Assembly: GCA_964402645.1 (NCBI GenBank)
Contig: CAYOCV010000012.1
Coordinates: forward strand, 36,622 to 100,621
Direction of reading: 5' to 3'
Length of the DNA stretch: 64,000 nt
Source: an uncultured Desulfovibrio sp.
GTDB taxonomy: Bacteria; Desulfobacterota; Desulfovibrionia; Desulfovibrionales; Desulfovibrionaceae
The translations under genes and the position numbers were made by a program. Each line of letters opens with the position of its first letter. Within the stretch, counting starts at the first letter, position 1. Below, one piece after another: positions 8,224-48,478 of the stretch. Below the pieces are notes generated by a model. It was not told the DNA's origin, did not search any database, and saw nothing but the letters and a program-made list of their open reading frames with translations.

Positions 8224-8260
8224 TGCGGCCGCCAGACCGGCGACCCGATTCGGGACCACC

Positions 8261-14840: not shown

Positions 14841-14870
14841 ACAGGCCCGCCCCACAAGGGACGGGCCTGT
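14841..14870 (+). terminator. Hairpin plus T-rich tract after the activator gene
   Basis: The stem is acaggcccg....cgggcctgt, followed by ctttcttcc. Confidence 0.5.
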
Positions 14871-14936
14871 CTTTCTTCCTATCCTGATGCAGCATCGCCC
14901 GGCGCGAAAAGCCCGCGCCGGGCAACGCCTGCGCGG

Positions 14937-16679: not shown

Positions 16680-16780
16680 GATGTGCTCCTTGAAAGTGTA
16701 AAATCACGCTGTCGGATGTCCGGCCGGTAGACATCCGTCCATCCCGACTAACGGGTGGAGCCAGTGTGTCCCCCCCTTGT

Positions 16781-26328: not shown

Positions 26329-26696
26329 GGGGTCATCGCTCCTTCATGCGGGGTGGGTGCGCGGCGGCAGCAACGTCGAAACGTCCGCGTGATTGCAGTG
26401 GCCGCGCCGTGCCCCGCAAACTACGCCAATCCGGATGCCGGTTCAAATGGAAATTGCCCGCCCTTGCGGGCTGTGCTAGCATTGCCGCTGTCGCAGCCCG
26501 GAAGGCGACCGCGCCCCGCCCCGTGGCGGGGCGTTGCGCATGCCGCAGCCGTTTCCGCCCCCGATAACGCCCATTCCGCCCGGCCTCGCCGCCGGGCGCA
26601 GGCCCGCCCTACCCGGCACGCCGCACCCGGCACGCAACAACGCGCGCCGGATGCGCCCATCGTTGCCGGGCCGCGCCGCCCCTGCCGGAGCCCGTC

Positions 26697-33334: not shown

Positions 33335-33351
33335 GCATTTTTGCAACGCGC
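33335..33351 (+). promoter_or_regulatory. Candidate activator-binding motif, copy 1 (GCATTTTTGCAACGCGC)
   Basis: It is about 175 nt upstream of the 33511 -24/-12 element. Near-identical copies lie at 33421 and 37178. Confidence 0.35.
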
Positions 33352-33420
33352 GGCACCTGTGCCGTTCTGCACAGCAGTTTACATCACACTAAAATATCAT
33401 GACTTTTTACAGAAACCGCC

Positions 33421-33437
33421 GCATTTCTGCAACACGC
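33421..33437 (+). promoter_or_regulatory. Candidate activator-binding motif, copy 2 (GCATTTCTGCAACACGC)
   Basis: It matches copy 1 at 15 of 17 positions and lies about 90 nt upstream of the 33511 element. Confidence 0.35.
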
Positions 33438-33510
33438 ACCGTAAAAACACATTTGTTCGCTCAACTCGCCTTTCCCCCCTAACATCTCGTACCTAAAAGA
33501 TTTTCCCCGG

Positions 33511-33526
33511 TGGCACGCTCGATGCT
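33511..33526 (+). promoter_or_regulatory. Candidate sigma-54 promoter for the GRE operon
   Basis: TGGCACGCTCGATGCT has a perfect -24 TGGCAC and a -12 TGC at canonical spacing. It is 76 nt upstream of the GRE ATG. Confidence 0.6.
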
Positions 33527-33601
33527 TATGCCGACGCAGTTCCTGCCTGTGCCGTGTATTCGCAAACAATCCCATACGGGCCAAGCCCGGGGAGAATCCT
33601 G

Positions 33602-36073
33602 ATGACCACCTGCTGCCTGTCCCCCCAGGAAGTGCGCCTGCAAAACCCGGAACCGGACAAGACCGGGCGCACGCGCGTCTACTCCATTCTCGAGACCTTC
33701 CAGTATCAGGTTCCGTTCATCGACGTGGAGCGCGCCCGCTACTTCACCGAGTCCATGCGCGCCACCGAGGGCCAGTTGCTGTCCCTGCGCTGGGCCAAGG
33801 CGCTGCAGAACTGCGCCGAGAAGATGACCGTGTACATCACCCCGAACCAGCTCATCGCCGGCCGCGCCGGGCAGTTTGGCCGCTACGGCATCCTGTACCC
33901 GGAAATCGACGGCGACTTCTACGGCGTGGTCATGCGCGACCTGCCGAACCGCGCCAAGAGTCCCTTCCGCATCTCGGACGCGGACATCAACATCATCCTC
34001 GATGAAATAGCCCCCTACTGGGAAGGCAAGACCTACCACGAGCATCTCAACGGCGCGCTGCCCGAAGAGTTGCGCAACGTCACCTACGCCGACGCTTCGG
34101 GCCTCAAGTCCAAGTTCGTGGTCAGTGAAACCTCTTCCTACCGTTCGGCCCTGCAATGGGTGCATGACTACGACAAGGTGCTCCGGCGCGGCATGCTGGA
34201 CATCAGGGCCGAAATGCTGGCCCGTCTGGAAAGGCTGGACCCGGACAGCCCCATCGACAACTGGGAGAAGAAGCCGTTCCTGCAAGCCATGGTCATCGTG
34301 TGCGACGCCTTCATGACCTGGGCAAAACGCCACGCCGACCTCGCCCGCGCCCAGGCCGCCGCCGAAGCCGACCCCGCCCGCAGGCAGGAGCTGCTGCATC
34401 TGGCCGACATCTGCGACCGTGTGCCCGCCCACCCGGCCCGCACCTTTCACGAGGCCGTGCAAGCGCAGTGGTTCGTCCAGATGTTCTCGCGCATCGAGCA
34501 GAAATCCAGCGCCATCATCTCCAACGGACGCATGGACCAGTATTTACATCCCTTCTATGCCAGGGACCTTGCCGAAGGGCGCATCACCGAAGAAAGCGCC
34601 ATGGAGCTTCTGGAGTGCATGTGGGTGGAGATGGCCCAGTTCATCGACCTGTACATCAACCCCACCGGCAACGAGTTCAACGAAGGCTACGCCCACTGGG
34701 AGGCCGTGACCATCGGCGGCCAGACCCCCGACGGACATGACGCCACCAACGACCTGACCTACCTGTTCCTGCGCTCCAAGCGCGAATTTCCGCTGAACTA
34801 TCCGGACCTGGCCGCCCGCATCCACTCCCGCTCGCCGGAACGCTTCCTGTACGAAGTGGCCGAGACCATCAAGGACGGCTCCGGCTTTCCCAAGCTGATC
34901 AACGACGAGGAAGTGGTGCCGCTGTATGTGGCCAAGGGCGCGCCCTTCAGGGACGCCCTGGACTACGCCGTGTCGGGCTGCACAGAGGCCCGCATGCCCA
35001 ACCGCGACACCTACACCTCTGGCTGCGTGTACATCAACTTCGCCACGGCCATGGAAATGACCATGCACAACGGGCGGATGCTGAAGTACGGACAGGACGA
35101 CCTGGTGGGCCTGGAAACCGGCGACCCCACCACCTTCGCCACCTGGGAGCAGTTCTGGGACGCCTACACGGCCCAGCACATGAACCTGCTGTCCAAGGCC
35201 TTCACCCAGCAGTCCGTGGTGGACTGCCTGCGTCCGCAGCACTTTGCCTCGCCTTTTGCCTCGGTGCTGCACGACCTGTGCGTTGCAGACTGCAAGGACC
35301 TGCAATCACCCCGTATCGAAGGTGGCGTGGATTTCTCGTACTTTGAATTCCTGGGCTACGGGACGGTGGTCGACTCGCTGGCGGCGGTCAGGAAGCTGGT
35401 GTTCGAGGACAAGAAGGTGCCCATGGCCGATCTGGTGGCCGCGTTGCGCAACGACTTTGAAGGACGCGAGCCCCTGCGCGCCCTGCTGCGCTCCGCCCCC
35501 TGCTACGGCAACAACAATCCGTACGCGGACGCCATCGCCAGGGAAGTGGACCGCATGACCCAATTGTTTGCGGAAAAATATTCCAAGGTACGGGGCATCA
35601 ACTGCGACGTGCGCTACGTGCCCATCACCTCGCACGTGCCCTTCGGCAAGGTGGTCAGCGCCACCCCCAACGGCCGCAAGGCGTGGACGCCCCTGTCCGA
35701 CGGCTCGTCCGCCTCGCACGGCGCGGACCGCAACGGCCCCACGGCGGTGCTGTTGTCCAACTACCATTCCAAGAACTGCGACCTGAAGAACCGCGCCTCG
35801 CGCCTGCTGAACATCAAGCTGTCGCCCAGGTGCGTGGCCGGAGAAACCGGCACCCGCAAGCTTGTGGATGTCATCCGCAGTTGGTGCGACCTGAAGTTGT
35901 GGCACCTGCAATTCAACATCATCAACAAGGAAACCCTGCTCAAGGCCAAGGCCGATCCGGACAGGTACCGGGGCCTGCTGGTGCGCATTGCGGGGTACAG
36001 CTCGTACTTCTGCGACCTTTCGCCCGACTTGCAGGACGACGTGATCAACCGCACCGAACACGACGAGATGTAG
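33602..36073 (+). CDS. Glycyl radical enzyme, eliminase class, sulfonate-type (IslA/IseG/HpsG/HpfG-like)
   Basis: 823 aa from the ATG at 33602, with GGGGAG upstream. The C-terminal glycyl-radical motif is [10 protein letters not shown] and the Cys loop is VSGCTEA (C-x-E). YRSALQ and a later RYVPIT Arg are positioned like sulfonate-binding residues (see findings). Confidence 0.9.
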
Positions 36074-36144
36074 CATCCGCATTCACGGGGCAGGGGGCGG
36101 CTGACGCCCCCCCCCTGCCCCGCCACCACGGGAAGAGGCACCCC

Positions 36145-37047
36145 ATGCAGGACAAGGAACGGACAGGCATCATCTTCAACATACAGAAGTATTCCGTGCA
36201 TGACGGCGCGGGCATCCGCACCATGGTCTTCTTCAAGGGCTGCCCGTTGCGCTGCGCCTGGTGCAGCAACCCCGAATCGCAGCAACTGCGGCCGGAACGC
36301 GGGTTCAACCGCTACAAGTGTCTTTCTCCGGCTGTGTGCGGCTACTGTATCCCCGCCTGCGCCAAAGGGTGCATCCTTGACATAGAGGGCCTGCTGGCCA
36401 TCGACTACACCCGCTGTGACGGCTGCCTGCTCTGCGCCCAGGCCTGCCCTACCGGGGCCATGAGCGTCTACGGCGAAAGCCTGAGCGTGGCCGAGGTGCT
36501 GGCGTCGGTGGAGCAGGACGCGGTGTTCTATGCCCGATCCGGCGGCGGCATGACCCTGTCCGGGGGCGAGGTGATGCATCAGCCGGACTTTGCCGTGGCG
36601 CTGCTGCGCGAGGCCCGCCGCAGGCACATCAACACGGTGATGGAAACCTGCGGCCACTGCGACGGCGACGCGCTGGTCGAGGCCTGCCGTCATCTGGACA
36701 CGTTGATCTTCGACATCAAGCACCTGTCCAGCGATGTACACCGCGATGGCACCGGCGTCGGCAACGAACGCATTCTGGAAAACTTCCTCCGCGTGTGTGC
36801 CGCATTTCCCGCATTGCCCATCATTGCCCGCACCCCGGTCATCCCCGGCTTCAATGACACGGAGGCCGACATCCGGGCCATTGCCCGGTTTCTGCCCAAG
36901 CGCGCCAACCTCGTCCACGAGCTGCTTCCCTACCACCGCATGGGCCAGACCAAATACGAATTCCTTGGGCGCGCCTTTCCCATGGGCGGCGCGCAACTGG
37001 CCACCGGCACACTGCGGCGGTTGCAGGACGTGTCCATGGCCCGCTGA
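36145..37047 (+). CDS. Glycyl-radical-enzyme activating enzyme (radical SAM)
   Basis: FNIQKYSVHDGAGIRTMVFFKGCPLRCAWCSNPES contains CxxxCxxC. Two ferredoxin-like Cys clusters follow (CGYCIPAC, CDGCLLCAQACP). Confidence 0.9.
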   Translation: MQDKERTGIIFNIQKYSVHDGAGIRTMVFFKGCPLRCAWCSNPESQQLRPERGFNRYKCLSPAVCGYCIPACAKGCILDIEGLLAIDYTRCDGCLLCAQACPTGAMSVYGESLSVAEVLASVEQDAVFYARSGGGMTLSGGEVMHQPDFAVALLREARRRHINTVMETCGHCDGDALVEACRHLDTLIFDIKHLSSDVHRDGTGVGNERILENFLRVCAAFPALPIIARTPVIPGFNDTEADIRAIARFLPKRANLVHELLPYHRMGQTKYEFLGRAFPMGGAQLATGTLRRLQDVSMAR

Positions 37048-37094
37048 TCCGTCGCGCCCTTGCAGTCTGTTTCTCGCACAGGCAGCTTTTTTCT

Positions 37095-37124
37095 CCGGCA
37101 TCCCGAAAGGGATGCCGGTTTTTT
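37095..37124 (+). terminator. Intrinsic terminator after the activase
   Basis: ccggcatccc-gaaa-gggatgccgg is followed by TTTTTT. Confidence 0.8.
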
Positions 37125-37177
37125 GCGCCATGTGTTCCGGATGGTGCAAATCGGCACAGCAGGCCGCCCGGCACGTC

Positions 37178-37194
37178 GCGTTTTTGCAACACAC
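37178..37194 (+). promoter_or_regulatory. Candidate activator-binding motif, copy 3 (GCGTTTTTGCAACACAC)
   Basis: It has the same core as 33335 and 33421. A related inverted copy (GTGATTTTTGCGCACGC on the minus strand) lies at 37349..37365. Confidence 0.3.
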
Positions 37195-37555
37195 CCGCTC
37201 GCCTATCAAAACAATACTTTGTTATTTAATGGCTTTTCCAACAGGCAACCTTGCGTCGCTTTTTTGCATCATATACAAGACCTGATGCAACCCTGCCTTT
37301 CTTCCTTCTGACATTTCGATTTTTCTTTTTATTTTCGCATAATTAGAAGCGTGCGCAAAAATCACCCCCACCGTCGTTCACGTGGCGGAATACCCCGCTG
37401 CTGACGCCTGAACACCAAACGTCCGGCGCCGACCGCTCCCTTCCCCCAACGCCTCGGAAAATAAATCCTTCAATACAAACATATTACGAAAACATCGACT
37501 CTAAAAAAAGAGTACCCCCGCAACAATACTATTTGCTCGCCCAATCATTCACAAA

Positions 37556-37571
37556 CGGCACCATTCTTGCT
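37556..37571 (+). promoter_or_regulatory. Candidate sigma-54 promoter for the SDR/ABC/dehydrogenase operon
   Basis: CGGCACCATTCTTGCT has GG and GC at canonical spacing. It follows an AT-rich tract at 37300..37550. Confidence 0.6.
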
Positions 37572-37695
37572 CCTTCATATTACGCACTGCCGCTGACCCC
37601 TTCTGGTTGCAAAGACAACATACACGGCATGCAAAGACTTGCTAATTGACCTGCACGTACGTGGACATGCAACGGCATCCTCCGTGGAGTTCTCC

Positions 37696-37905
37696 ATGAC
37701 GGAACGCATCCGCCATTCCAGATGCTGCACACCGGCCACATGTTGCCGCATATCGCCAAATGCCGTCTGCAACGGCATGGCCGCGAACGCATGGTCCGCA
37801 AATGACGCATACACGCCACTGCACGCCTGCGGCCCGCAGAAGCGCGGCATGGACCACGCCGCCATCGTCCTGCGACCACTCTCGCCGACAGGGGGCATGC
37901 CATGA
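37696..37905 (+). CDS. Possible 69-aa Cys-rich leader protein (speculative)
   Basis: GGAG lies 6 nt before the ATG at 37696, and the ORF starts about 110 nt after the predicted sigma-54 start site. The stop TGA overlaps ATG 37902 (ATGA). Sequence: [27 protein letters not shown]...; no family recognised. Confidence 0.3.
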
Positions 37906-37991
37906 CCCCCACCGTCTGTCCGGCTGTCAGCCCGAATACCCGCCTTGCTGCCCCTCCCATTGACCGGCCGGTTGCCCTTTCCCCGCCCGGA

Positions 37992-38765
37992 ATGGCCGAA
38001 ATGTTCTGCCTCTCCGGCAGGACCGCGCTGGTCACCGGCGGCAATTCCGGCCTTGGCGAAGCCATGGCCACGGCACTGGGCCTTGCCGGGGCACGCGTGC
38101 TGCTGCTGGCCCGCAGGCAGCCTGAACTGGACGAGGCTGCGGCCCGCCTGACCGCCCTCGGCATCGACGCCCTGACCATCTCCGCCGACCTCACCGCCCC
38201 CGACGCCATCGCCGCCAGCGCGGCACAAGCCCTCGCCCTGTCCCAAACCGCGTCAGGCCAGGTGGACATCCTGGTCAACGCAGCGGGCGTCAACCTGCGC
38301 CAGCCGTTCCAGGACATCACCCCCGAAGCCTGGCGACGCCAGATCGACCTGCACCTTTCCACACCCTTCTTTCTTGTCCAGGCACTGGCCCCCGGCATGC
38401 GCGAACGCGGCTGGGGCCGCATCATCAACATCGCCTCCCTGCAATCCTTCCGGGCCATGCCCGACAGCGCGCCCTACGGAGCGGCCAAGGGCGGCATTGT
38501 GCAGCTTACCCGCGCCATGGCCCAGGCCTGGGGACCGCACGGCATCACCTGCAACGCCATCGCTCCCGGCTTTTTCCCCACCGCGCTCACCGCGCCGGTG
38601 TTCGACGACCCGGACGCCGTGGCCCGCCATGCGGCGCAAACCTGCCTTGGCCGCAACGGACGCATGGAGGACCTGCACGGCCTGACCCTGTTTCTCGCTA
38701 GCAACGCATCATCGTATGTCACCGGACAAACGATCATGCTCGATGGTGGATTCTCGGCGAAATGA
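37992..38765 (+). CDS. Short-chain dehydrogenase/reductase (classical SDR)
   Basis: [15 protein letters not shown] (TGxxxGxG), NAAG, and S...YGAAKGG (YxxxK) are present. The alternative start at 37902 would add a Pro-rich 30 aa. Confidence 0.8.
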
Positions 38766-38843
38766 CTGATGTTTTACTGTGTCAGACGGCTCCGTCCCGG
38801 CTTCATGTGACAATTTCACAGAACAGCAACAGCGAGGTCGTAC

Positions 38844-39926
38844 ATGAAAAAACGTCTAGCCACTGCCCTTGCACTCCTTCTTGTCGGCGCATTCATGGTC
38901 GCTGGCCTCACCCCCCTCTGCGCCAGCGCTGCGGACAAGCCTGAGATCCGCACCAGCGCGCAACCCTGCCTGCACGGCATGCCGTTGTGGTATGCGGAAA
39001 AGGCTGGCTGGCTGGCAAAGGCCCCGTTCACCAACTCCTTCATGCTGTTCGCCTCGGGCGCGCCCCAGGTGGAAGCGCTGGCCGCCAACCAGTGGGACGT
39101 AGGGGCCATGGGCGCCCTGCCCACCATGATGGCCAGCATGCGCTACGGCTACAAGTTCATCGGCATTTCCAACGACGAATCGGAAACCAACGACCTGTGG
39201 GTGCGCCCCGATTCGCCGCTGCTGAAGAACAAGGGCGCCAACCCCAAGTTCCCCGACATCTTCGGCAGCGCCGACGACTGGAAGGGCAAGAAGGTGCTGG
39301 CCACCACCGTGTCCACGGGCCACTACGCCCTCACCGCCACCCTGGCTGCGCTGGGCCTGAAGGACACCGACGTCTCGCTGGTCCATATGGAGCAGGGCCA
39401 GGCCGTCACCGCGTTCAACGCGGGTGAAGGCGACGTGATCCAGCTGTGGGCACCCTTCAGCTACATTGCCGAGGCCAAGGGCTGGAAAAAGGTCTCCTCC
39501 GGCAGCAAGGCCGGGGTGGTCATTCTGGGCGGCATCGGCGTGCGCAAGGACTTTGCCGAAAAGTTCCCCGACCTCGTGGTGGACTGGCTGGACGTGTACA
39601 TGCGCGGCATCGAGATGATGAAGAACGAGCCGGGCAAGAGCGTGGAGCCGCTGCTGAACTACTTCACCGGCTACTGCGGCCTGGAACTGACCCGCGACCA
39701 GGTGGAGAAGGAATTCAAGTACCGTCCCCTGTACGACGTGAACGAACAGGTGCGCCTGCTGGAAGACCCGGCCAAGACCGCCGCGTGGATGGACGGCGTG
39801 GCCAAGTTCATGCTGACCCAGGGCCGTATCACCACCAAGGAATACGACCGCTACGCCAAGAGCAACTACGGGATCGACCCGTCGTTCATGAAGAAGCTGG
39901 CTGAACGCCGCGCCGCCGCGAAATAA
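38844..39926 (+). CDS. ABC transporter substrate-binding protein, NitT/TauT (SsuA/TauA/NMT1-like) family
   Basis: Signal peptide MKKRLATALALLLVGAFMVAG..ASA is followed by an NMT1-like fold pattern. It is followed by TauC/SsuC-like permeases. Confidence 0.8.
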   Translation: MKKRLATALALLLVGAFMVAGLTPLCASAADKPEIRTSAQPCLHGMPLWYAEKAGWLAKAPFTNSFMLFASGAPQVEALAANQWDVGAMGALPTMMASMRYGYKFIGISNDESETNDLWVRPDSPLLKNKGANPKFPDIFGSADDWKGKKVLATTVSTGHYALTATLAALGLKDTDVSLVHMEQGQAVTAFNAGEGDVIQLWAPFSYIAEAKGWKKVSSGSKAGVVILGGIGVRKDFAEKFPDLVVDWLDVYMRGIEMMKNEPGKSVEPLLNYFTGYCGLELTRDQVEKEFKYRPLYDVNEQVRLLEDPAKTAAWMDGVAKFMLTQGRITTKEYDRYAKSNYGIDPSFMKKLAERRAAAK

Positions 39927-40060
39927 GCAGTGCAACCTCCGCCGTCCCCCGGCGCTGCCGCCGGGGGACGGATACGGAAGGCGGCATGATGCCCCGAGCG
40001 ACAGGTTCCGCCCGGCATGGAGCCTGCTGCCCTCCCCTCCACGCGCGACAGGAGTCTAGC

Positions 40061-40900
40061 ATGCAGACCACCACAGACGACGTACAGGACACCGTATCGC
40101 TGGAAGTCGCAAAGGCCGGCTATCTGGCCTCCGCCGCCCGCGAACACTGGATATCCGTCGTCAGCCTGATCGTCTTCCTGATCATCTGGGAACTGATCTG
40201 CCGGTTCGAGATCATCGGCCCCTACCAGTTGGTTCCCCCATCCGAGATCCTTGGCGTCTTCGTGGACAAATTCTCCGAGCCCAATCCCGATGGCGCGCTG
40301 CTGCAAGAGCACGCCTGGGCCAGCCTGTCGCTGGCGCTGGCCGGATTCGGGGCGGCGGTATGCATAGGCGTGCCGCTGGGGCTGCTGATGGGCTGGTACA
40401 AGCCGGTCAACCTGCTGGTGCGCCCGCTGTTCGACGCGGTGCGGCCCATTCCGCCCATCGCCTGGATACCCATCGCCATCCTGTGGCTGGGCATCGGCAT
40501 TCACGCCAAGGCGTTCATCATCTTTCTGGCGGCGTTCGTGCCCTGCGTGATCAACTCGTACACGGGCATCCGCCTGACCAACCCGGTGCTGATCCGCGTT
40601 GCCCGCATCTACGGCGCCTCCAATTTCGAAACCTTCCGCAAGATCGGCGTTCCATCGGCCATTCCCATGGTGTTCACGGGCATCAAGCTGTCGCTCAACG
40701 CCGCGTGGACCACCCTGGTGGCGGCGGAACTGCTGGCCGCATCGCAGGGGCTTGGCTACATGATCCAGCTCGGCCGCAGGCTGGCCCGCCCGGACATCAT
40801 CATCGTGGGCATGCTGGCCATCGGCCTGCTGGGCGCGCTGATGTCGTGGGGGCTGACCAGGATCGAGGCCCGCTTTGCATCCTCCCGGAGGCTCTCATGA
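40061..40900 (+). CDS. ABC transporter permease 1 (TauC/SsuC-like)
   Basis: The block VRPIPPIAWIPIAILWLGIG is typical of NitT/TauT permeases. AGGAG lies before ATG 40061. Confidence 0.85.
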   Translation: MQTTTDDVQDTVSLEVAKAGYLASAAREHWISVVSLIVFLIIWELICRFEIIGPYQLVPPSEILGVFVDKFSEPNPDGALLQEHAWASLSLALAGFGAAVCIGVPLGLLMGWYKPVNLLVRPLFDAVRPIPPIAWIPIAILWLGIGIHAKAFIIFLAAFVPCVINSYTGIRLTNPVLIRVARIYGASNFETFRKIGVPSAIPMVFTGIKLSLNAAWTTLVAAELLAASQGLGYMIQLGRRLARPDIIIVGMLAIGLLGALMSWGLTRIEARFASSRRLS

Positions 40901-41679
40901 TCGGTCGACTCGGCAAGCGGCTGATGCCCGCCGCGCTCACCACCGGATCGCTGCTGGCCTTCGTGGTCTTCTGGCAGGTGGTATCGCTGTACACCAATCC
41001 CGACTTCCTGCCCTCGCCGGGGCGCGTATGGGACGAGGCCGTGCGCCTGTTCCACACCCCCGTGGGCGGCAAGGACATTCTGACCCACGTGGGGTTCAGC
41101 CTCAGGCGCGTGCTTACCGCCTACCTGTGGGCCACCGTGCTGGGGCTGCCGCTGGGCCTGTGCATGGGGTGGAACCGGACGTGCGAAAAGATCGTCTCGC
41201 CCATCTTCGAACTGCTGCGGCCCATTCCGCCCATCGCCTGGATACCCATCGCCATCCTGTGGCTGGGCGTGGCCGAAGGCTCCAAGGTGTTCATCTGCTT
41301 CGTGGGGTCCTTCGTCATCCTGGTGCTGAACTCGTACACCGGCATGCGCTACGTGGACCCGCTGCTCATCGACGCGGCCCGCTCATTCGGGGCGTCGCGC
41401 AGGCAACAGTTCTTCAACGTGGCCGTGCCCGCGTGCCTGCCCTCCATCTTCGCCGGGTTGCAGAACGCGCTGTCCATGGCCTGGATGTGCGTGCTGGCGG
41501 CGGAACTGGTGGGGGCGCGCGAGGGCGTGGGGTTCATCATCATCCAGGGCATGGACCTGAACCGCCCGCCCATGATCCTTGTAGGCATGATCCTGATCGG
41601 CATCGTGGGTTCGCTGCTGGCGGCCTCGCTGCGCTGGGCGGAACGGGCGCTGTGCCCCTGGCGGAGGGAGCTGGTATGA
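40897..41679 (+). CDS. ABC transporter permease 2 (TauC/SsuC-like paralog)
   Basis: LRPIPPIAWIPIAILWLGVA is present. The start has an ATGA overlap with permease 1. Confidence 0.85.
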   Translation: MIGRLGKRLMPAALTTGSLLAFVVFWQVVSLYTNPDFLPSPGRVWDEAVRLFHTPVGGKDILTHVGFSLRRVLTAYLWATVLGLPLGLCMGWNRTCEKIVSPIFELLRPIPPIAWIPIAILWLGVAEGSKVFICFVGSFVILVLNSYTGMRYVDPLLIDAARSFGASRRQQFFNVAVPACLPSIFAGLQNALSMAWMCVLAAELVGAREGVGFIIIQGMDLNRPPMILVGMILIGIVGSLLAASLRWAERALCPWRRELV

Positions 41680-42443
41680 CCGGGCAGACTGCCAAGATCG
41701 AATGCCGCGACCTGTCAAAGGCCTTTCACGTGCCGGGGCAGGACCAGCGGCTGCTGGTTCTCGACCGCGTGTCGCTGTCGGTGCGCGAAAACGAATTCCT
41801 GGTTGTCCTGGGGCCGGGCCAATGCGGCAAGACCGTGCTGCTCAACTGCATCGCCGGGCTCATCGAACCTTCTGCCGGGCAGGTGCTGCTGGACGGCACG
41901 CCGGTCACCAGGCCGGGCCCGGACCGGGCCATGGTCTTCCAGCGCTACGCCCTGATGCCGTGGAAGACCGTGGAGCACAACGTGGCCTTCGGCCTGGCCG
42001 TGCGCGGCGTCCCCGTGAAGGAGCGGCTGGCTGCGGCCCACCACTACATCGACCTTGTGGGGTTGAAGGGCTTTGAAAAGGCCTACCCGGAACAGCTTTC
42101 CGGCGGCATGAAGCAGCGCGTGGGCATTGCCCGCGCCTACGCCAACGCCCCGGACATCCTGCTGATGGACGAACCCTTCGGCGCGCTGGACGCCCAGACC
42201 CGCTACGCCATGGAGCAGGACCTGCGCTCCATCTGGGAAAAGGAAAAGCGCACGGTCATCTTCGTCACCAACAACATCGAAGAGGCCATCTACCTGGGCG
42301 ACAGGATACTGGTCATGTCCGTGCTGCCCGGCAGGGTCAAGGCGGAATACGACATTGGCATCCCCTCGCCACGCAACTACACCGACCCTGCTTTTCTCAC
42401 CTACAGAAAGCAGATCTCCAACGCCACGGACCTTTCCCTATAG
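41676..42443 (+). CDS. ABC transporter ATP-binding protein 1 (TauB/SsuB-like)
   Basis: GPGQCGKT, MVFQRYALMPWKTV, LSGGMKQRVGIARA and LLMDEPFGALD are present. The start has an ATGA overlap with permease 2. Confidence 0.9.
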   Translation: MTGQTAKIECRDLSKAFHVPGQDQRLLVLDRVSLSVRENEFLVVLGPGQCGKTVLLNCIAGLIEPSAGQVLLDGTPVTRPGPDRAMVFQRYALMPWKTVEHNVAFGLAVRGVPVKERLAAAHHYIDLVGLKGFEKAYPEQLSGGMKQRVGIARAYANAPDILLMDEPFGALDAQTRYAMEQDLRSIWEKEKRTVIFVTNNIEEAIYLGDRILVMSVLPGRVKAEYDIGIPSPRNYTDPAFLTYRKQISNATDLSL

Positions 42444-42453
42444 GAGACATGTC

Positions 42454-43227
42454 ATGGAGACTGCCGCCACGTATCCTTACGCCCAGAACCGCAAGGTCAA
42501 GGTGCAGGTGGAAAACCTCACCAAGTGTTACGACGACCTGCTGGTGCTCGATAAGATCAACTTCGACATCTATCAGGGCGAACTGCTGTGCATCGTGGGC
42601 CCCACGGGCTGCGGCAAGACCACGTTCCTGAATTGCCTTTCACAGTTCATCCCCATGACGGAAGGCTCCATCCTGGTGGACGGCGTGCCTGCCTCGCCGG
42701 AAATCCACAACATCGCCTTCGTGTTCCAGGAGGTGTCCGCCATCCCCTGGCTGACGGTGGAGGACAACATCCGCTTCGGCCTGCGCATCAAGCGCCTGCC
42801 GGAGGCGGAGATAGAGCGGCGCACCGAGCGCATGCTCGACCTGGTGGGCCTGCGCAAGTACCGCACCTATTTCCCGCAGCAGCTTTCGGCCAGCATGGAG
42901 CAGCGCGTGGTCATCGCGCGCAACTTCGCCATCAACCCCGACCTGCTGCTGATGGACGAGCCTTACGGCCAACTGGACGTGAAGCTGCGCTACTACCTGG
43001 AGGACGAGCTGATCCGCATCTGGAAGGAGCTGGGCAGCACGGTGGCCTTCATCACCCACAACATCGAAGAAGCCATCTACCTTGCCGAACGCATCCTGAT
43101 CCTGTCGCCCAAGCCCTCCACCATCAAGGAGGAGGTCATCGTGGATCTGCCCCGCCCCCGCCAGTACGACGACCCAGAATTCGTCCGGCTGCGCGAGTAC
43201 GTGACTGAACGCATCAAGTGGTGGTAG
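42454..43227 (+). CDS. ABC transporter ATP-binding protein 2 with degenerate signature motif
   Basis: GPTGCGKT and LLMDEPYGQLD are present. The signature position reads LSASMEQRVVIARN instead of LSGGxxQR. TAGGAGA lies before ATG 42454. Confidence 0.85.
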   Translation: METAATYPYAQNRKVKVQVENLTKCYDDLLVLDKINFDIYQGELLCIVGPTGCGKTTFLNCLSQFIPMTEGSILVDGVPASPEIHNIAFVFQEVSAIPWLTVEDNIRFGLRIKRLPEAEIERRTERMLDLVGLRKYRTYFPQQLSASMEQRVVIARNFAINPDLLLMDEPYGQLDVKLRYYLEDELIRIWKELGSTVAFITHNIEEAIYLAERILILSPKPSTIKEEVIVDLPRPRQYDDPEFVRLREYVTERIKWW

Positions 43228-43446
43228 GCCGCCCGCCCGTCCCTTTGCCCGCAACAGGCGGATGGACGGCGTCCCGCCATTGTTTCCCGGTATTCCCCAA
43301 GGTTTGAGTTCATCGCGGTGCTTATCGTCCGTGCCGTCTCACCGGCCCCTTTTGGCCCGCTTGGCCACATTCCGGAGAGCGCGACGGGCGCAACGTCAAA
43401 CCGGGTCCGCGCAGTGTGCGGACAACGCCTGCCAGGGAGAAACGTC

Positions 43447-44307
43447 ATGCATATCGGATTCATCGGAGCAGGGCTGATGGGAGGACCGCTGGCCCGCAAT
43501 CTCATCCGGGCCGGAAAGAACGTACTGGTCTACGACCTGAGCGCAGAGGCCGCCGCGCGCACCGCAGGCGTGGGGCCCACCGGGCGCACCGCCGCCGCGC
43601 TGGCCGACCTGGCCGGGTGCGATCTTGTCTTCACCAGCCTGCCCCTGCCCGCCCACGTGGAAGGCGTGATGCTGGGCGACGACGGGCTGCTGCAACGGCT
43701 GAAGCCCGGCGCCATCCATGTGGAGCTGAGCACCATCGATCCGCAGACCTCGGCCCGACTGGAGGCCGCCGCCAAGGCCAGAGGCTGCGCCTTCCTGCAA
43801 TGCACCCTGGGCAAGACGCCCGCCCACGCGGAAAAGGCCGAGGAACCCATGTTCATCGGCGGCGACCAGGCCGTGTTCGACAGCCTGGCCGACATCTGGC
43901 CGATCATCGGCAGCCCTGCCTACTACATGGGCGGCGTGGCCGCCTCGTGCGCGGTCAAGCTGATCAGCAACATGGTGGGCATGACCAACCTGGCCGTGCT
44001 GGCCGAGGGCCTGCGCATTGGCGAAAAGGCGGGCATCGAGCGCGGCGCGCTCATCGCGCTGCTGCAGGATACCGGCGCGCGCAGCTTTCAGATGGACGTG
44101 CGCGGCCCGTGGATTGCCGCCGACGACTACGCCAACCGCTTCGGTCTCGACCTTGCCCTGAAGGACGTGCGCCTGGGCTGCGAGATGGCCGCCGCCTGGG
44201 GCATGAAGATCCCGGCCATGTCCGCCGCGCTGGAAACCTTCCGGCGCGCCAGCGCTGCCGGGCTGGGGCGCGAAGACTGCAACGCCGTGTACAAGGCGAC
44301 CGAATAA
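43447..44307 (+). CDS. Beta-hydroxyacid dehydrogenase (HIBADH/YihU/GarR family)
   Basis: MHIGFIGAGLMGGPLARNL (GxGxxG) is present, with a central lysine block (CTLGKTPAHAE) and a helical C-terminal domain. GGGAGA lies before the ATG. Confidence 0.85.
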   Translation: MHIGFIGAGLMGGPLARNLIRAGKNVLVYDLSAEAAARTAGVGPTGRTAAALADLAGCDLVFTSLPLPAHVEGVMLGDDGLLQRLKPGAIHVELSTIDPQTSARLEAAAKARGCAFLQCTLGKTPAHAEKAEEPMFIGGDQAVFDSLADIWPIIGSPAYYMGGVAASCAVKLISNMVGMTNLAVLAEGLRIGEKAGIERGALIALLQDTGARSFQMDVRGPWIAADDYANRFGLDLALKDVRLGCEMAAAWGMKIPAMSAALETFRRASAAGLGREDCNAVYKATE

Positions 44308-44401
44308 CCACGGATCCCACGAACCCCAGGGACTGGGGACGCGACGCCCCCATCCTTTTCGTACTGGCTTCCGCAGCATCCGGAACCTGAAAGGAGCTAC
44401 C

Positions 44402-45856
44402 ATGTTGAGTAATCCCGAATTGATGCGTCAGGCATGCTACATCGACGGCGCGTGGGTGGGGGCCGACGGCGGCGCCACCATTGCCGTACACAACCCCGCC
44501 ACCGGGGCGCAGCTGGGCACGGTGCCCGCATGCGGCACGGCGGAAACCGCCCGCGCCATCGCCGCCGCCGCCAGCGCCTGGCCTGCCTGGCGCGCCATGA
44601 CCGCCCTGCAGCGGGCGGACATCATGCTGCGCTGGCGCGACCTGATCATGCAGAACCAGGACGACCTGGCCAAACTGATGACCCTTGAACAGGGCAAGCC
44701 CCTGCCCGAAGCGCGCGGCGAAATCGGCTTCGCGTGCAGCTTCCTGCGCTGGTTCGCGGAAGAAGCCCGCCGCATGTACGGCGACATCGTGCCCGCCCCG
44801 TGGCCGGGCAAGCGCATCCTGGTCACCCGCGAACCGGTGGGCGTGGTGGGCATCATCACCCCCTGGAACTTCCCCACGGCCATGATCGGCCGCAAGGTGG
44901 GCGCGGCCTTTGCCGCCGGGTGCCCGGTGGTCATCAAGCCCGCCAGCCAGACCCCCTATTCCGCGCTGGCCCTGGCCGGGCTGGCCGAGCAGGCGGGCGT
45001 GCCCAAGGGCGTATTCAACGTCATCACCGGCTCCGCCCGCGAGATCGGCGGCGAGATGACATCCAACCCCGCCGTGCGCAAGATAAGCTTCACCGGGTCC
45101 ACCGAGGTGGGCAAGGAACTGATCCGCCAGTGCGCCTCCACGGTGAAGAAGGTGTCCATGGAGCTTGGGGGCAACGCGCCGTTCCTCATCTTTGACGACG
45201 CGGACATCGACCTTGCCATCGTCGGGGCCATGGCCAGCAAATACCGCAACACCGGTCAGACCTGCATCTGCGCCAACCGCTTCTACGTGCAGGAAGGCGT
45301 GTACGACCTGTTCGTGCAGAAGCTGACCGTGGCCGTTTCCGCCCTGAAGGTGGGCAACGGGATGGACGACGGCGTGACCCAGGGGCCGCTCATCGACGGC
45401 AAGGCGCTGGCCAAGGTGGAAGCGCAGGTCAAGGACGCCCTGGCCAAGGGCGGCACCCTGGTCTGCGGCGGCAACCGGCACAGCATGGGCGGCAACTTCT
45501 TCGAGCCCACGATCATTGCCGGGGCCACCCCGGACATGGCCTTCGCCAGGGAGGAAACCTTCGGCCCGCTGGCCCCGGTGTTCCGCTTCAAGACCGAGGA
45601 AGAGGCCATCGCCATGGCCAACGACACGGAATTCGGCCTTGCGGCCTACGTCTACACCCGTGACCTTGGCGCGGCCTTCCGCGTGTCCGGGGCGCTGGAA
45701 TACGGTCTGGTGGGCGTGAACGAAAGCCTCATCTCCACCTGCGAGGCCCCCTTCGGCGGCGTGAAGGAAAGCGGCATGGGCCGCGAAGGTTCGCGCCACG
45801 GCCTCGATGACTACACGGTGATCAAGTACACCTGCATGGGCGGTCTTGGCGGCTAG
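44402..45856 (+). CDS. NAD(P)+ aldehyde dehydrogenase, GabD/SlaB-like (succinate-semialdehyde dehydrogenase subfamily)
   Basis: ITPWNFP, FTGSTEVG, catalytic MELGGNAP and GQTCICANR, and EETFGPL are present. The overall pattern is strongly GabD-like. Confidence 0.9.
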   Translation: MLSNPELMRQACYIDGAWVGADGGATIAVHNPATGAQLGTVPACGTAETARAIAAAASAWPAWRAMTALQRADIMLRWRDLIMQNQDDLAKLMTLEQGKPLPEARGEIGFACSFLRWFAEEARRMYGDIVPAPWPGKRILVTREPVGVVGIITPWNFPTAMIGRKVGAAFAAGCPVVIKPASQTPYSALALAGLAEQAGVPKGVFNVITGSAREIGGEMTSNPAVRKISFTGSTEVGKELIRQCASTVKKVSMELGGNAPFLIFDDADIDLAIVGAMASKYRNTGQTCICANRFYVQEGVYDLFVQKLTVAVSALKVGNGMDDGVTQGPLIDGKALAKVEAQVKDALAKGGTLVCGGNRHSMGGNFFEPTIIAGATPDMAFAREETFGPLAPVFRFKTEEEAIAMANDTEFGLAAYVYTRDLGAAFRVSGALEYGLVGVNESLISTCEAPFGGVKESGMGREGSRHGLDDYTVIKYTCMGGLGG

Positions 45857-45951
45857 AGACTGTCCGGACCGTGCCCGTTGCGAGGCCGCAAGGCCGGGAT
45901 GGCGGCCCCGCAACGGATGGCACCACGGCCCAGCCGCTGTATGATCCGCCG

Positions 45952-45983
45952 GTCGGGCATGCGAAGCGACGCGCATGCCCGAC
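45952..45983 (+). terminator. 12-bp perfect hairpin after the aldehyde dehydrogenase
   Basis: gtcgggcatgcg-aagcgacg-cgcatgcccgac. No strong T-run follows. Confidence 0.45.
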
Positions 45984-46244
45984 CCTCTTGTCCAGAAAAT
46001 TTGCGGTCCAGAGAATCTGCAATCCGGGAAACCCTCAGCCCGGCGGCCCGTACCGCCAGAGGGTGACCCACTGGGCGGGCGCGCCCACATGCTGGCCCGT
46101 GCAGGGCGTGCCCGTCTTTCCTTCCCCCCCGCCTTGGCCTATATCTGGCCATGGCGGAGTGCAATCGCCGCCCCCTGCCCCCGGCCATGCCGCCCCTTCC
46201 GGCGCCGGGCGGAGAATGACCGATCCCTCTGCCAAGGGAGCGAC

Positions 46245-47624
46245 ATGCTTTCGGAATACCTCGACCAGTTGCTGGACACCTTCAAGGACGCCATCTGCAT
46301 CACCGACCGCGAGGGGACCATCGTGTACCTCAACCGGCGGCACAGCGAACTGACCGGCATCCCGAAGGAGGATCTGCTCGGCAAGTCGGCCATCGAGATG
46401 ATGCGCCACGGCGTGTTCGACGTGGTGCTCAACCCCGAAATCGTCAAGACCCGCCAGGGCACCACGTCCATCCAGAACATTTCCAATGGCCGCAAGCTGT
46501 TCCTTGACGGCAGCCCCATCCTCGACCGCCAGGGCGAGGTGGTCTACGTGGTCACCTTCATGCGCGACGTGACCACCCTGGTGGAACTGAAGCGCGAACT
46601 GGCCTCGCAAAAGGAACTGCTGGACACCTTCCAGAGCCTGAGCAGCGCAAGCCCGGAGCGCACCGAAAACTATCCGGTGATGCTGCACAGCACTGTCATG
46701 CGCACCATATGCGAGCAGTTGGAAGGCATCGCCGAAACCGACGCCACCGCACTGCTGCTGGGCGACACGGGGGTGGGCAAGGACGTGCTGGCCCGGCGGC
46801 TGCACGCCATCAGCCCGCGCGCGGGCAAGCCGTTCATCAAGGCGGACTGCGCCAGCATACCCGCCAACCTCATCGAGACGGAGCTGTTCGGCTACACGCC
46901 GGGCACCTTTTCCGGCGGCAACAGGCACGGCAAGATGGGCCTCATAGAGGCCGCCGCCGGGGGCACCCTGTTCCTTGACGAGATCGGCGAACTGCCCATG
47001 TCCATGCAGTCGCGCCTGCTGCGCCTGCTGCAGGACCGGGAAGTGATGCGCGTGGGTTCCACCACCTCCGCGCGGGTGGACGTGCGCATCGTGGCTGCCA
47101 CCAACAAGGACCTGGAAAAGGAAGTGCGCGACGGGCGCTTTCGCAGCGACCTGTACTACCGCCTGAAGGTGGCGGTGATCCGCATCCCCCCGCTGCGCCA
47201 GCGCAAGGCGGACATCGTGCCCCTGGCGCAGGGCTTCCTGCGGTTCTACTGCGCAAAGTACCGCCGCAACCTCACCCTGTCGCCCCTGGCCGAGGACGCC
47301 CTGCGCGGCCATCACTGGCCCGGCAACGTGCGCGAACTGGAAAACCTGATCCAGGGCCTTGTGGTCACTTGCAAGCGCCCCGCCATCGAACCGCGCGACC
47401 TGCCCTTTGTCCGCACCGCGCCGCTCAGGACAGGCCCCTGCCTGGACACGGGGCCGGGGGTGGACATCGAGGGGCGCAGCTTCAAGGACATCATGCATGA
47501 ACTGGAAGGACGCGTGCTGCGCCATGCGTTGGCCCGTTACGGCACCATTGCCGAGGTGGCCAAGCAGTTCAGCGTGGACCGCAGCACCATCTTCCGCAAG
47601 CTGAAGGACGGGCAGGACGACTAG
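46245..47624 (+). CDS. Sigma-54-dependent transcriptional activator with PAS sensor (paralog of 13370..14791)
   Basis: PAS region (ICITDREGTIVYLNRRHSELTG). AAA+ domain with LLLGDTGVGKD, ETELFGY, GTFSGG and LFLDEIGEL. HTH VAKQFSVDRSTIFRKLK. AAGGGAG lies before ATG 46245. Confidence 0.9.
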   Translation: MLSEYLDQLLDTFKDAICITDREGTIVYLNRRHSELTGIPKEDLLGKSAIEMMRHGVFDVVLNPEIVKTRQGTTSIQNISNGRKLFLDGSPILDRQGEVVYVVTFMRDVTTLVELKRELASQKELLDTFQSLSSASPERTENYPVMLHSTVMRTICEQLEGIAETDATALLLGDTGVGKDVLARRLHAISPRAGKPFIKADCASIPANLIETELFGYTPGTFSGGNRHGKMGLIEAAAGGTLFLDEIGELPMSMQSRLLRLLQDREVMRVGSTTSARVDVRIVAATNKDLEKEVRDGRFRSDLYYRLKVAVIRIPPLRQRKADIVPLAQGFLRFYCAKYRRNLTLSPLAEDALRGHHWPGNVRELENLIQGLVVTCKRPAIEPRDLPFVRTAPLRTGPCLDTGPGVDIEGRSFKDIMHELEGRVLRHALARYGTIAEVAKQFSVDRSTIFRKLKDGQDD

Positions 47625-47631
47625 CCCGGCC

Positions 47632-47676
47632 AGGGGATGCGGGGGTTGCGGGAGTTGCGGGGGATGCGGGGGATGC
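47632..47676. repeat. G-rich 9-bp tandem repeat (5 copies of GGGGRWTGC)
   Basis: aggggatgc gggggttgc gggagttgc gggggatgc gggggatgc, beginning 8 nt after the activator stop codon. Confidence 0.8.
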
Positions 47677-47878
47677 CGGTGGCCAGCCGGGAGGCGCCCG
47701 CCTTCCCCCCCCTGAAGCCGCGATCCGTACTTCACCCTTCGCCCCCCAACCGCATTGCCGTTTGCGCCGGAACGGGCGGCGAGCGCCCCCGCACGCCACG
47801 CCCAGCGCCGCTCACGGCCTTGCGCTGGCGGGGTTCTTCTGGCACTGGCAAGGGAACATTCCGCGACAAGGAGAACGC

Positions 47879-48478
47879 ATGGAGTTCCTGCCCATCAAAC
47901 GGGCGCTCATGAGCGCCACGGACAAGAGCGGCCTGGCCGACTTCGCGGCCTTTCTGGCGGGCAACGGCGTGGAACTTGTCTCCACCGGCGGCACGCGCCG
48001 CATGCTCGAAGGCGCGGGGCTGAAGGTTACCCCCGTCAGCCGCGTGACCGGCTTTCCCGAAATCCTCGGGGGCCGGGTAAAGACGCTGCACCCGCACATC
48101 CATGGCGGCGTGCTGGCCGACAAGGACAATCCGGAACACGTGGCCACGCTGCGCGAACTGGGCATTGCCCCGTTCGACCTGATCTGCGTGAACCTGTACG
48201 ACTTCGCCACAGCGGCGGCCAAGGGGCTGGACCTCAAGCAGGCCGTGGAGGAAATCGACATCGGCGGCCCGTGCATGCTGCGCGCCGCAGCCAAGAACTA
48301 TCACTCCATCCTCGTGCTGCCTTCGCCCGCGTACTACGGGCAGGCCATGGAGGAAATGCGCACCAATTCCATGCGCGTGGGGCTGGAATTCCGGCGCGAG
48401 ATGTCCGTGCTCACCTTTGCCGCCACGGCGGCCTACGACCGCATGATCGCCGATTATCTGGCGGCAGCGGCAAGATAG
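47879..48478 (+). CDS. Stand-alone IMP cyclohydrolase (MGS-like N-terminal PurH domain)
   Basis: KRALMSATDKSGL, VSTGGT, FPEILGGRVKTLHP.IHGG and DLICVNLY are present. AAGGAGA lies before ATG 47879. The protein is 199 aa. Confidence 0.85.
   Translation: MEFLPIKRALMSATDKSGLADFAAFLAGNGVELVSTGGTRRMLEGAGLKVTPVSRVTGFPEILGGRVKTLHPHIHGGVLADKDNPEHVATLRELGIAPFDLICVNLYDFATAAAKGLDLKQAVEEIDIGGPCMLRAAAKNYHSILVLPSPAYYGQAMEEMRTNSMRVGLEFRREMSVLTFAATAAYDRMIADYLAAAAR

Follow-up and report, generated by a model that had tools for sequence, protein, structure and literature searches.

A putative dihydroxypropanesulfonate regulon combining a radical sulfolyase with an oxidative branch in a relative of Nitratidesulfovibrio

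We analysed a 64,000-nucleotide (nt) stretch of DNA from an uncultured Desulfovibrio sp. (GenBank assembly GCA_964402645.1, contig CAYOCV010000012.1, positions 36,622 to 100,621; the whole stretch is termed the window, and positions are counted from its first letter). The window contains a ~14-kb block of eleven genes, all on the plus strand (33602–47624), that we read, at a probability of roughly 0.7, as a regulon for uptake and catabolism of 2,3-dihydroxypropane-1-sulfonate (DHPS) that merges two known anaerobic DHPS routes. DHPS, an abundant sulfonate of plant and algal origin, constitutes one of the largest organosulfur fluxes; it is formed when sulfoquinovose is degraded and by marine phytoplankton, and it gives rise to H2S in the gut. 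Sulfite- and sulfate-reducing Desulfovibrionaceae degrade it either by a radical sulfolyase route, with excretion of hydroxyacetone, or by an oxidative route via sulfolactate and SuyAB. The sequence comparisons show which genes are present, the families to which they belong, the conservation of the regulatory DNA, and orthology to modules characterised by experiment; the substrate of the locus is almost certainly DHPS.

The open reading frames (ORFs) and domains of the window (G+C content ~66%) were annotated. The host is a sulfate reducer of the Nitratidesulfovibrio type, and the genomes nearest to the window are those of Nitratidesulfovibrio strains D1, 1201_IL3209, and HK-II and of a termite-gut metagenome-assembled genome (MAG) of that group. 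A preliminary description, made from the letters and ORF translations, had reported a co-directional 14-kb organosulfonate locus built around a C–S-cleaving type of glycyl radical enzyme (GRE), and this observation is confirmed. Specifically, the block encodes a GRE and its activase (predicted operon 1, hpsG-hpsH); a short-chain dehydrogenase/reductase (SDR), a periplasmic binding protein, two permeases and two ATPases of an ATP-binding cassette (ABC) importer, a dehydrogenase of the 3-hydroxyisobutyrate dehydrogenase (HIBADH) family, and a GabD-like aldehyde dehydrogenase (ALDH) (predicted operon 2); and a PAS-domain sigma-54 activator.

The first gene, hpsG (33602–36073), encodes an 823-residue GRE that we file in the HpsG family, with predicted (S)-DHPS sulfolyase activity, because of its model score, its identity to crystallised Bilophila wadsworthia HpsG (PDB 6LON), the state of its active site, and its placement in a phylogenetic clade. 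In particular, it scores 1493.4 bits against NF048011, the NCBIfam equivalog model for HpsG (cut-off 1000), and is 71.5% identical to B. wadsworthia HpsG, 67.1% identical to Desulfovibrio vulgaris IseG (5YMR), and 62.3% identical to B. wadsworthia IslA (7KQ3). Pfam detects PFL-like and Gly_radical domains, and the glycyl radical loop (VRIAGYS) and the Cys-x-Glu motif (SGCTE) align with their counterparts in 6LON. HpsG anchors the sulfonate through Arg183, Gln187, and Arg672 (PMC13450708); this Arg/Gln/Arg set is present in the GRE, and the segment SSYRSALQW and a further 10-residue segment are identical to 6LON. At four discriminating active-site positions, which were picked from the alignment and the IslA literature rather than from a published HpsG rule, the GRE has Tyr, Ala-Leu, Cys-Val, and Ile, like 6LON, whereas the corresponding residues of IseG and IslA are Phe, Ser-Ile, Gly-Ala, and Phe. 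In IslA numbering, the IseG/IslA signature comprises Phe682, which adjoins the substrate, a Gly-Gly-Ala loop, and Ser-Ile before Gln193, in place of which the GRE has Ile, Gly-Cys-Val, and Ala-Leu. The HpsG pattern occurs in 106 of 124 aligned sequences. In a neighbour-joining tree, the GRE and three other sequences form an early branch within a 118-member clade that holds B. wadsworthia HpsG and excludes D. vulgaris IseG and B. wadsworthia IslA. One proposal of the preliminary description, that oxidation of a C3 sulfonate feeds a GRE with a novel substrate, finds no support, since the active site is identical to that of HpsG at the positions examined.

The second gene, hpsH (36145–37047), encodes a 300-residue radical-SAM activating enzyme with Pfam Radical_SAM and Fer4 domains. 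It scores 432.7 bits against the HpsH model NF048010 (cut-off 430) and 322 bits against TIGR02494, and falls short of the HpfG-side activase model NF048008 (248.9 bits; cut-off 500).

Two side observations concern these families. NF048011 and NF048010 are labelled HpsG and HpsH (Desulfovibrio) yet carry the product name "(2S)-3-sulfopropanediol dehydratase", as do the HpfG models, so that RefSeq proteins of the HpsG clade bear a name that contradicts the published sulfolyase chemistry. The HpsG clade also contains metagenomic GREs with mixed signatures (P0112, P0113, P0116, P0117, P0009, and P0011), which may differ in substrate specificity: one group combines the HpsG-type Tyr and Ala-Leu with the IseG-type Gly-Ala and Phe, and the two nearest relatives of the window GRE outside Nitratidesulfovibrio have His-Ala or Cys-Gly, plus Val.

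The SDR gene (37902–38765), whose ATG at 37902 follows a GGGGG ribosome-binding site (GGAGG in three relatives), encodes an HpsO-like protein that is a candidate (R)-DHPS dehydrogenase. Among solved structures it is closest to 9PVQ (64.4% identity) and to the HpsO of R. pomeroyi (RpHpsO, 8WWF; 56.3%), and it keeps the equivalents of Ser145, Gln147, Tyr158, and Lys162 (RpHpsO numbering; ASLQ...YGAAK, against ASLQ...YGASK in 8WWF). Gln147 is reported to read the R configuration, and HpsO is R-specific (PMC11131964); Gln147 also occurs in 6LE3, a PDB entry named gluconate 5-dehydrogenase, so the glutamine is not a fully specific marker.

The HIBADH-family gene (43447–44307) encodes a 286-residue DhpA-like protein, a predicted DHPS 3-dehydrogenase with NAD_binding_2 and NAD_binding_11 domains. 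It has the family, the length (~286 residues), and the position, beside slaB and a sulfonate ABC transporter, of DhpA-type enzymes, and it is 80.1% identical to PDB 9K2J. The latter is 100% identical to a UniRef protein (P0124, "Desulfovibrio sp."), shares 88% identity with a Solidesulfovibrio protein, and is probably the DhpA of Desulfovibrio sp. DF1; a literature search returned no match for the codes 9K2J and 9PVQ. The adjacent ALDH gene (44402–45856) encodes a 484-residue member of the succinate-semialdehyde dehydrogenase (SSADH) subfamily, which scores 712 bits against TIGR01780 (cut-off 646). It has the catalytic Cys and Glu, the equivalents of Arg171 and Arg289, the proposed sulfonate-binding residues of the Rhizobium leguminosarum sulfolactaldehyde dehydrogenase (SLADH; RlGabD numbering; PMC10599462), and of Cys295 and Cys297 (WNF...R, ELGG, RNTGQTCIC), residues that are common to true SSADHs. 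Its predicted assignment as SlaB draws on gene context and on 81–82% identity to the dhpA-adjacent ALDHs of two other loci, L085 and L086. A more upstream ALDH start, hinted at by tblastn, was rejected: no start codon is present there, and a good ribosome-binding site precedes 44402.

L085, a 1.98-Mb JGI metagenome contig, and L086, a Solidesulfovibrio locus, link the window to strain DF1. Growth of DF1 on DHPS induces DhpA (HIBADH family), SlaB (SSADH-like), and an SsuA/TauT-type ABC binding protein, all encoded on one contig, where the transporter has two permeases and two ATPases; the conversion of DHPS, via sulfolactaldehyde, to sulfolactate by DhpA and SlaB has been demonstrated (PMC6278857). 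In L085 and L086 the gene order is dhpA, slaB, larA-like, activator, MCP (methyl-accepting chemotaxis protein), SDR, two ATPases, two permeases, and binding protein, an order that matches how locus tags are spaced in the DHPS-induced cluster of DF1; close to the module are SuyAB in L085, and Ldh_2 and TauE in L086. The HIBADH-like protein of the window is 79–82% identical to the L085 and L086 proteins encoded beside slaB-like genes, the permeases are 81% and 70% identical to those of L086, the ATPases are 69–71% and 80–83% identical to those of both loci, and the SDR is 53–56% identical to theirs. The ABC, HIBADH, and ALDH genes of the window are orthologues of those in the DF1 module for DHPS.

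The importer genes comprise an SsuA/TauA-family binding protein with a signal peptide, a candidate DHPS binder (38844–39926); permease 1 (40061–40900) and permease 2 (40897–41679), each with a BPD_transp_1 domain; and ATPase 1 (41676–42443) and ATPase 2 (42454–43227), each with an ABC_tran domain. The binding protein matches the SsuA family model (TIGR01728) and taurine-binding models, all below their cut-offs, has TauA and SsuA as best PDB matches, and occupies the gene position of the DHPS-induced SsuA/TauT-family binding protein of DF1. The three ATGA overlaps that the preliminary description had counted in the importer exist, in part elsewhere: two join ABC genes (40897 and 41676), a further one lies at the junction of a small ORF and the SDR gene (37902), and the two ATPase genes do not overlap.

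Two sigma-54 promoters of the −24/−12 type, both noticed in the preliminary description, precede the two predicted operons: TGGCACGCTCGATGC (33511–33525), 77 nt upstream of the hpsG ATG, and CGGCACCATTCTTGC (37556–37570), upstream of the SDR-to-ALDH operon. Over the whole window the −24/−12 pattern has 8 matches against 9.7 expected, which is not above chance, and the case for the promoters is built on conservation across genomes. In a comparison of five genomes (the window, L002, L003, L015, and L082), promoter 1 is invariant save for two variable spacer positions; promoter 2 is identical in four genomes, and in L015, where it stands before another gene set, it carries two substitutions and one base immediately upstream is lost. 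The retention of both sites while the surrounding intergenic DNA diverged is good evidence of function.

Each promoter is accompanied by a predicted upstream activator region. Upstream of promoter 1 (33335–33433), two GC.TTT.TGCAAC boxes (33335–33347 and 33421–33433) enclose the palindrome CTGTGC-N6-GCACAG (33357–33374); upstream of promoter 2 (37144–37270), the palindrome GTGCAAATCGGCAC (37144–37157) precedes two boxes (37178–37190 and 37258–37270). The box occurs four times in the window, always within these two regions, and each region has a GTGC-N6-GCAC palindrome (the promoter 1 copy begins at 33359). In the same five genomes the promoter 1 boxes and palindrome are conserved and the core of the promoter 2 palindrome is invariant. 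The block thus has what a sigma-54 operon needs by sequence: upstream GG-N10-GC promoters, upstream activator sites, and an activator gene. The latter (46245–47624; Pfam PAS and Sigma54_activat) has a GGGAG ribosome-binding site before its ATG, encodes a GTFSGG variant of the GAFTGA loop, and specifies a protein 88% identical to the L015 activator and 52–64% identical to the activators in most HpsG-type loci. It is probably a DHPS-responsive activator of both promoters, and we infer its binding to the predicted upstream sites. Sigma-54 control of "PFL-like" operons through adjacent single-component activators was predicted in 2015 (PMC4641369).

Between the operons, the activase gene is followed, as the preliminary description had noted, by a clean intrinsic terminator (37095–37118, with the feature ending at 37124) consisting of a 10-bp stem with eight G–C pairs and a T6 tract, which is kept in L002, L003, and L082. 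Operon 2 would begin with a leader of ~330 nt (37571–37901). The short Cys-rich ORF that had been reported within it (37696–37905; 69 residues, 6 Cys) exists, and its frame is open in L002, L003, and L082 (69–74 codons). Its status as a gene is doubtful: G+C at third codon positions is 0.53–0.73, against ~0.85 in real genes, amino-acid conservation is poor, and neither ORF nor leader has a Pfam, NCBIfam, or Rfam match. We treat it as a portion of the leader, which may be translated or may act as a regulatory RNA. Rfam gives no match at gathering score over the window, with a sub-threshold chance hit only in the leader region (37.0–38.05 kb), and RNAalifold of four leader sequences, which form two groups, gives a weak covariation term of −2.75 kcal/mol. 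The 5′ part of the leader and the GGAG-ATG start region are conserved across genomes, and a CUGCC in the 5′ part may pair with a GGCA directly after the SDR ribosome-binding site.

We compared the neighbourhoods of 29 loci that have the HpsG signature and in which the GRE gene is followed by 5 kb or more of sequence. The transporter is of the tripartite ATP-independent periplasmic (TRAP) type in 16, of the major facilitator superfamily (MFS) in 8, and of the ABC type in 4 (three Nitratidesulfovibrio genomes and one termite-gut MAG). A HIBADH-like gene lies within 10 kb in 15 loci, mostly at just 48–59% identity; an HpsO-like SDR occurs only in four Nitratidesulfovibrio genomes; and a SlaB-like ALDH occurs in three Nitratidesulfovibrio genomes and one Desulfomicrobium. 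Among these loci, the full gene set is found in Nitratidesulfovibrio only. The GRE belongs to a characterised clade whose neighbourhoods do not routinely show this gene set. In strain HK-II, a cluster at the same chromosomal site has promoter 2 driving an Amidohydro_2 gene, an SDR, and genes of a TRAP transporter, and it lacks the ABC, dhpA, and slaB genes, an arrangement that marks the ABC/dhpA/slaB segment as an interchangeable module. Two mouse-gut MAGs have been mentioned in brief as carrying hpsGH together with dhpA (PMC12330013), and a literature search found no paper connecting Nitratidesulfovibrio with sulfonates.

The Amidohydro_2 gene is present in most of the 29 loci and lacking in the window. 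As a separate observation, such genes (PF04909) lie beside hpsGH and IseG-like GREs in more than 20 loci from Desulfovibrionaceae, Bilophila, and Firmicutes (for example, L015:14115–14960 and L083:14178–15017), usually with a transporter behind a second sigma-54 promoter. In D. vulgaris the gene is DVU2820, already remarked on in the regulon study of 2015.

In the model that we favour, the PAS activator, presumably sensing DHPS or a product of DHPS, would bind the GTGC-N6-GCAC palindromes and switch on both sigma-54 promoters. The ABC system would import DHPS, as the DF1 proteomics suggests, and HpsG, activated by HpsH, would cleave (S)-DHPS to sulfite and hydroxyacetone, as its family membership and active-site identity predict; the sulfite would then be respired to H2S. 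In parallel, DHPS would be oxidised to sulfolactaldehyde, (R)-DHPS by the HpsO-like SDR and (S)-DHPS probably by the DhpA-like enzyme, and the SlaB-like ALDH would convert sulfolactaldehyde to sulfolactate. The oxidative branch would yield two NAD(P)H per DHPS, which could feed sulfite reduction.

The preliminary description had remarked that both dehydrogenase types of the DF1 SuyAB route are present with no SuyAB, aminotransferase, or microcompartment shell genes and with an ABC rather than a TRAP importer, and this holds. A tblastn search with queries including the L085 SuyA and SuyB finds no SuyAB, LarA, Ldh_2, or TauE homologue in the window, and no annotated window ORF has a SAF or GD_AH domain. 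All ORFs in the block are accounted for, and none encodes an aminotransferase or shell protein. In a database search with SuyB, no Nitratidesulfovibrio protein is listed among the best 120 matches.

Several observations weigh against the favoured model. The window has no gene for a sulfolactate lyase, a sulfolactate dehydrogenase, or a sulfopyruvate decarboxylase, so the oxidative branch has no visible outlet. The sulfolactate could be cleaved by a lyase encoded elsewhere in the genome, or excreted; sulfoacetaldehyde acetyltransferase (Xsc), encoded 17 kb upstream, could be a distal sink, and no enzymes connecting the branch to it were seen in the window. The GRE lineage branches early in the HpsG clade, the margin of HpsG over IseG in overall identity is small, and at 148 columns diagnostic for HpsG versus IseG/IslA the GRE is HpsG-like at 58 and lyase-like at 53; its active site is nevertheless unambiguous. 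The ALDH scores higher against Escherichia coli GabD, its best PDB match (683 bits), than against the R. leguminosarum SLADH (604 bits), and sequence alone cannot separate it from a true SSADH. We infer DHPS as ligand of the binding protein solely from gene position and the DF1 proteomics. Finally, HK-II has an HpsO-like SDR beside hpsGH with neither dhpA nor slaB, and the SDR may serve HpsG in a manner that the model leaves unexplained.

This last observation fits an unlikely alternative, in which the two DHPS dehydrogenases run in opposite directions and funnel enantiomers toward the sulfolyase: the HpsO-like SDR would take (R)-DHPS to sulfolactaldehyde, the aldehyde would epimerise, the DhpA-like enzyme would reduce it, in the manner of YihU, to (S)-DHPS for HpsG, and SlaB would be an overflow or detoxification valve. 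HpsO is R-specific, and in B. wadsworthia both HpsG and the protein for uptake select the S form, the organism consuming only about half of a racemic DHPS supply. HIBADH-family enzymes such as YihU work reductively, and HIBADH-like genes accompany hpsGH in about half of the HpsG-type loci, mostly with no ALDH, just as HK-II has the SDR and hpsGH and no slaB. However, we could identify no epimerase or isomerase for sulfolactaldehyde, the pair that acts oxidatively in SuyAB-type organisms is 79–82% identical to dhpA/slaB here, and an essentially irreversible, co-transcribed ALDH would drain the intermediate. Within the favoured model itself, we tentatively raise, as a possible though doubtful extension, a dismutation that would permit growth on DHPS alone with no sulfolactate lyase, the substrate being split between both branches. 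All (R)-DHPS (through the HpsO-like SDR) and some (S)-DHPS (through DhpA) would be oxidised by four electrons to excreted sulfolactate, and the electrons would reduce the sulfite that HpsG frees from the remaining (S)-DHPS, roughly 5 DHPS giving 3 sulfolactate, 2 hydroxyacetone, and 2 H2S. If true, this would be an enantiomer-partitioned sulfonate respiration, not described before, though it would not change the field.

Three further alternatives change the substrate or product of an enzyme. Salvage of the HpsG carbon product, in which the SDR, the HIBADH-like enzyme, and the ALDH would convert, for example, hydroxyacetone to 1,2-propanediol, lactaldehyde, and lactate, so that DHPS carbon is used rather than excreted, is very unlikely. 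It would confer an advantage, since B. wadsworthia is described as excreting hydroxyacetone unused, and the ALDH superfamily includes lactaldehyde dehydrogenases; yet the same dehydrogenases (79–82% identity) occur in SuyAB-type loci with no HpsG, where no hydroxyacetone is formed, the SDR retains the DHPS-reading Gln147, and the ALDH belongs to the SSADH/SLADH subfamily with both acid-binding arginines kept. Also among the proposals of the preliminary description was an isethionate route with the GRE as isethionate sulfite-lyase and the SDR reducing sulfoacetaldehyde, which we regard as highly improbable. The 67% identity to D. vulgaris IseG, a weak isethionate activity reported for HpsG, and the sulfoacetaldehyde-using Xsc 17 kb upstream lend it something, but the GRE is in the HpsG state at all four discriminating positions and outside the IseG/IslA branch, the nearest characterised relatives of the SDR are DHPS dehydrogenases, and the remainder of the operon matches the DHPS module. 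The other proposal, dehydration of DHPS by an HpfG-like GRE to 3-sulfopropionaldehyde, which the GabD-like enzyme would oxidise or the HIBADH-like enzyme reduce, is barely credible. Although 3-sulfopropionaldehyde is the sulfonate analogue of succinate semialdehyde, the ALDH is SSADH-like, and the NCBI product name of the matching model reads "dehydratase", the GRE scores only 439.3 bits against the HpfG model NF048009 (cut-off 1000), the model that it passes is the one labelled HpsG, and it shares 71.5% identity and the same active-site residues with the crystallised sulfolyase. In the literature, moreover, HpsG is the sulfolyase found in organisms that reduce sulfate or sulfite, and HpfG belongs to fermenters and has a binding mode like that of glycerol dehydratase.

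Other loci noticed in the course of the analysis include a second organosulfonate system in the window (9892–16703). It comprises Xsc (14937–16703, minus strand; TIGR03457, 776.8 bits, cut-off 676.4), a TRAP binding protein (11898–12992, minus strand), a fused DctQM permease (9892–11931, minus strand), and a second PAS/sigma-54 activator (13286–14791, plus strand); a flavin amine-oxidase-like gene (6643–8223) and an M24 peptidase gene (7928–9331) lie beside it, and no aminotransferase or sulfopyruvate decarboxylase was seen at the locus. An aldehyde:ferredoxin oxidoreductase gene (60523–62463, minus strand) lies 13 kb downstream of the block; in DF1 such an enzyme is encoded between dhpA and slaB and is DHPS-induced, with no known role. 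The dhpA of the Solidesulfovibrio-like contig L085 is 82% identical to that of the window and 85% identical to 9K2J. Directly upstream of dhpA-slaB in L085 (L085:941–9533), SuyAB adjoins a PfkB kinase, a class II aldolase, a zinc alcohol dehydrogenase (Zn-ADH), MFS transporters, and a DeoR regulator, a set that resembles a sulfosugar or hexitol pathway and may represent sulfoglycolysis in a sulfate reducer. The block is flanked by a threonine synthase gene on one side and a purH-like/hflX pair on the other, and purH-like pieces flank the region: a C-terminal AICARFT part at 26568–27989, and MGS with the first 59 AICARFT residues at 47501–48478. The same split arrangement occurs in L082 and L015 and is thus a feature of the lineage, not damage from cluster insertion.

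The preliminary description took the locus for a candidate undescribed pathway. The combination is indeed unusual, but every enzyme has a characterised relative in DHPS catabolism, and the locus is an unusual arrangement of known parts, not a new pathway. What is new is the architecture: one predicted regulon combines a sulfolyase with an oxidative branch for DHPS, uptake is by ABC in place of TRAP or MFS transport, and the 64-kb window contains no sulfolactate lyase, an arrangement so far confined, among the 29 loci, to one genus. Placing both DHPS routes and an (R)-DHPS-type dehydrogenase under one regulator suggests that some anaerobes handle both enantiomers, balancing electron donor and acceptor from a single compound. 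The locus also offers a compact testable circuit of one PAS activator, two promoters, and palindromic sites, and a candidate ABC-type DHPS binding protein for comparison with the TRAP proteins studied to date, and it draws attention to the conflict between an NCBI "dehydratase" name and sulfolyase chemistry.

Four known systems resemble parts of the block. The DF1 pathway shares a HIBADH-family DHPS dehydrogenase with an SSADH-like ALDH, an ABC importer, an SDR in the transporter operon, and a sigma-54 activator nearby. It differs in that the block lacks SuyAB, a LarA-like gene, an aldehyde:ferredoxin oxidoreductase, Ldh_2, and TauE; in that the activator domain is PAS here and GAF there; and in that the module here is fused to hpsGH with all genes co-directional, in contrast to two divergent operons there. 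The hpsGHKLM cluster of B. wadsworthia (Liu et al. 2020 PNAS, in what PMC12890257 and PMC8397734 relay of it; 6LON) shares the GRE active-site residues, a matching activase, a transporter gene after the GRE/activase pair, a sulfite-respiring Desulfovibrionaceae host, and the expected conversion of (S)-DHPS to sulfite and hydroxyacetone. It differs in the 71.5% identity and the early-branching lineage of the GRE here, in uptake (ABC here, the TRAP system HpsKLM there), in the three additional, predicted co-transcribed dehydrogenases here (HpsO-like, DhpA-like, and SlaB-like), and in the lack here of an Amidohydro_2 gene, which most HpsG-type loci carry.

The HpsO/HpsP/HpsN system of Roseobacteraceae and Cupriavidus pinatubonensis (PMC11131964; 8WWF) shares the SDR (56% identity to RpHpsO, with the catalytic triad and Gln147) and its pairing with a GabD-type ALDH, which here would convert sulfolactaldehyde to sulfolactate. 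The block, however, lacks HpsP (Zn-ADH) and HpsN, its second dehydrogenase belongs to the HIBADH family, its host is strictly anaerobic, and a radical sulfolyase lies in the same predicted regulon. Finally, the DVU2827 regulon of D. vulgaris Hildenborough (DVU2824–2825; PMC4641369) shares a single-component sigma-54 activator beside a "PFL-like" GRE, an activase, and a transporter, conserved −24/−12 promoters, predicted upstream activator sites, and a variant GAFTGA loop (GAFSGA there, GTFSGG here). In that study the GRE was read as a pyruvate formate-lyase, and it is accompanied there by a TRAP or MFS transporter plus an amidohydrolase, whereas here it is accompanied by an ABC importer and dehydrogenases.

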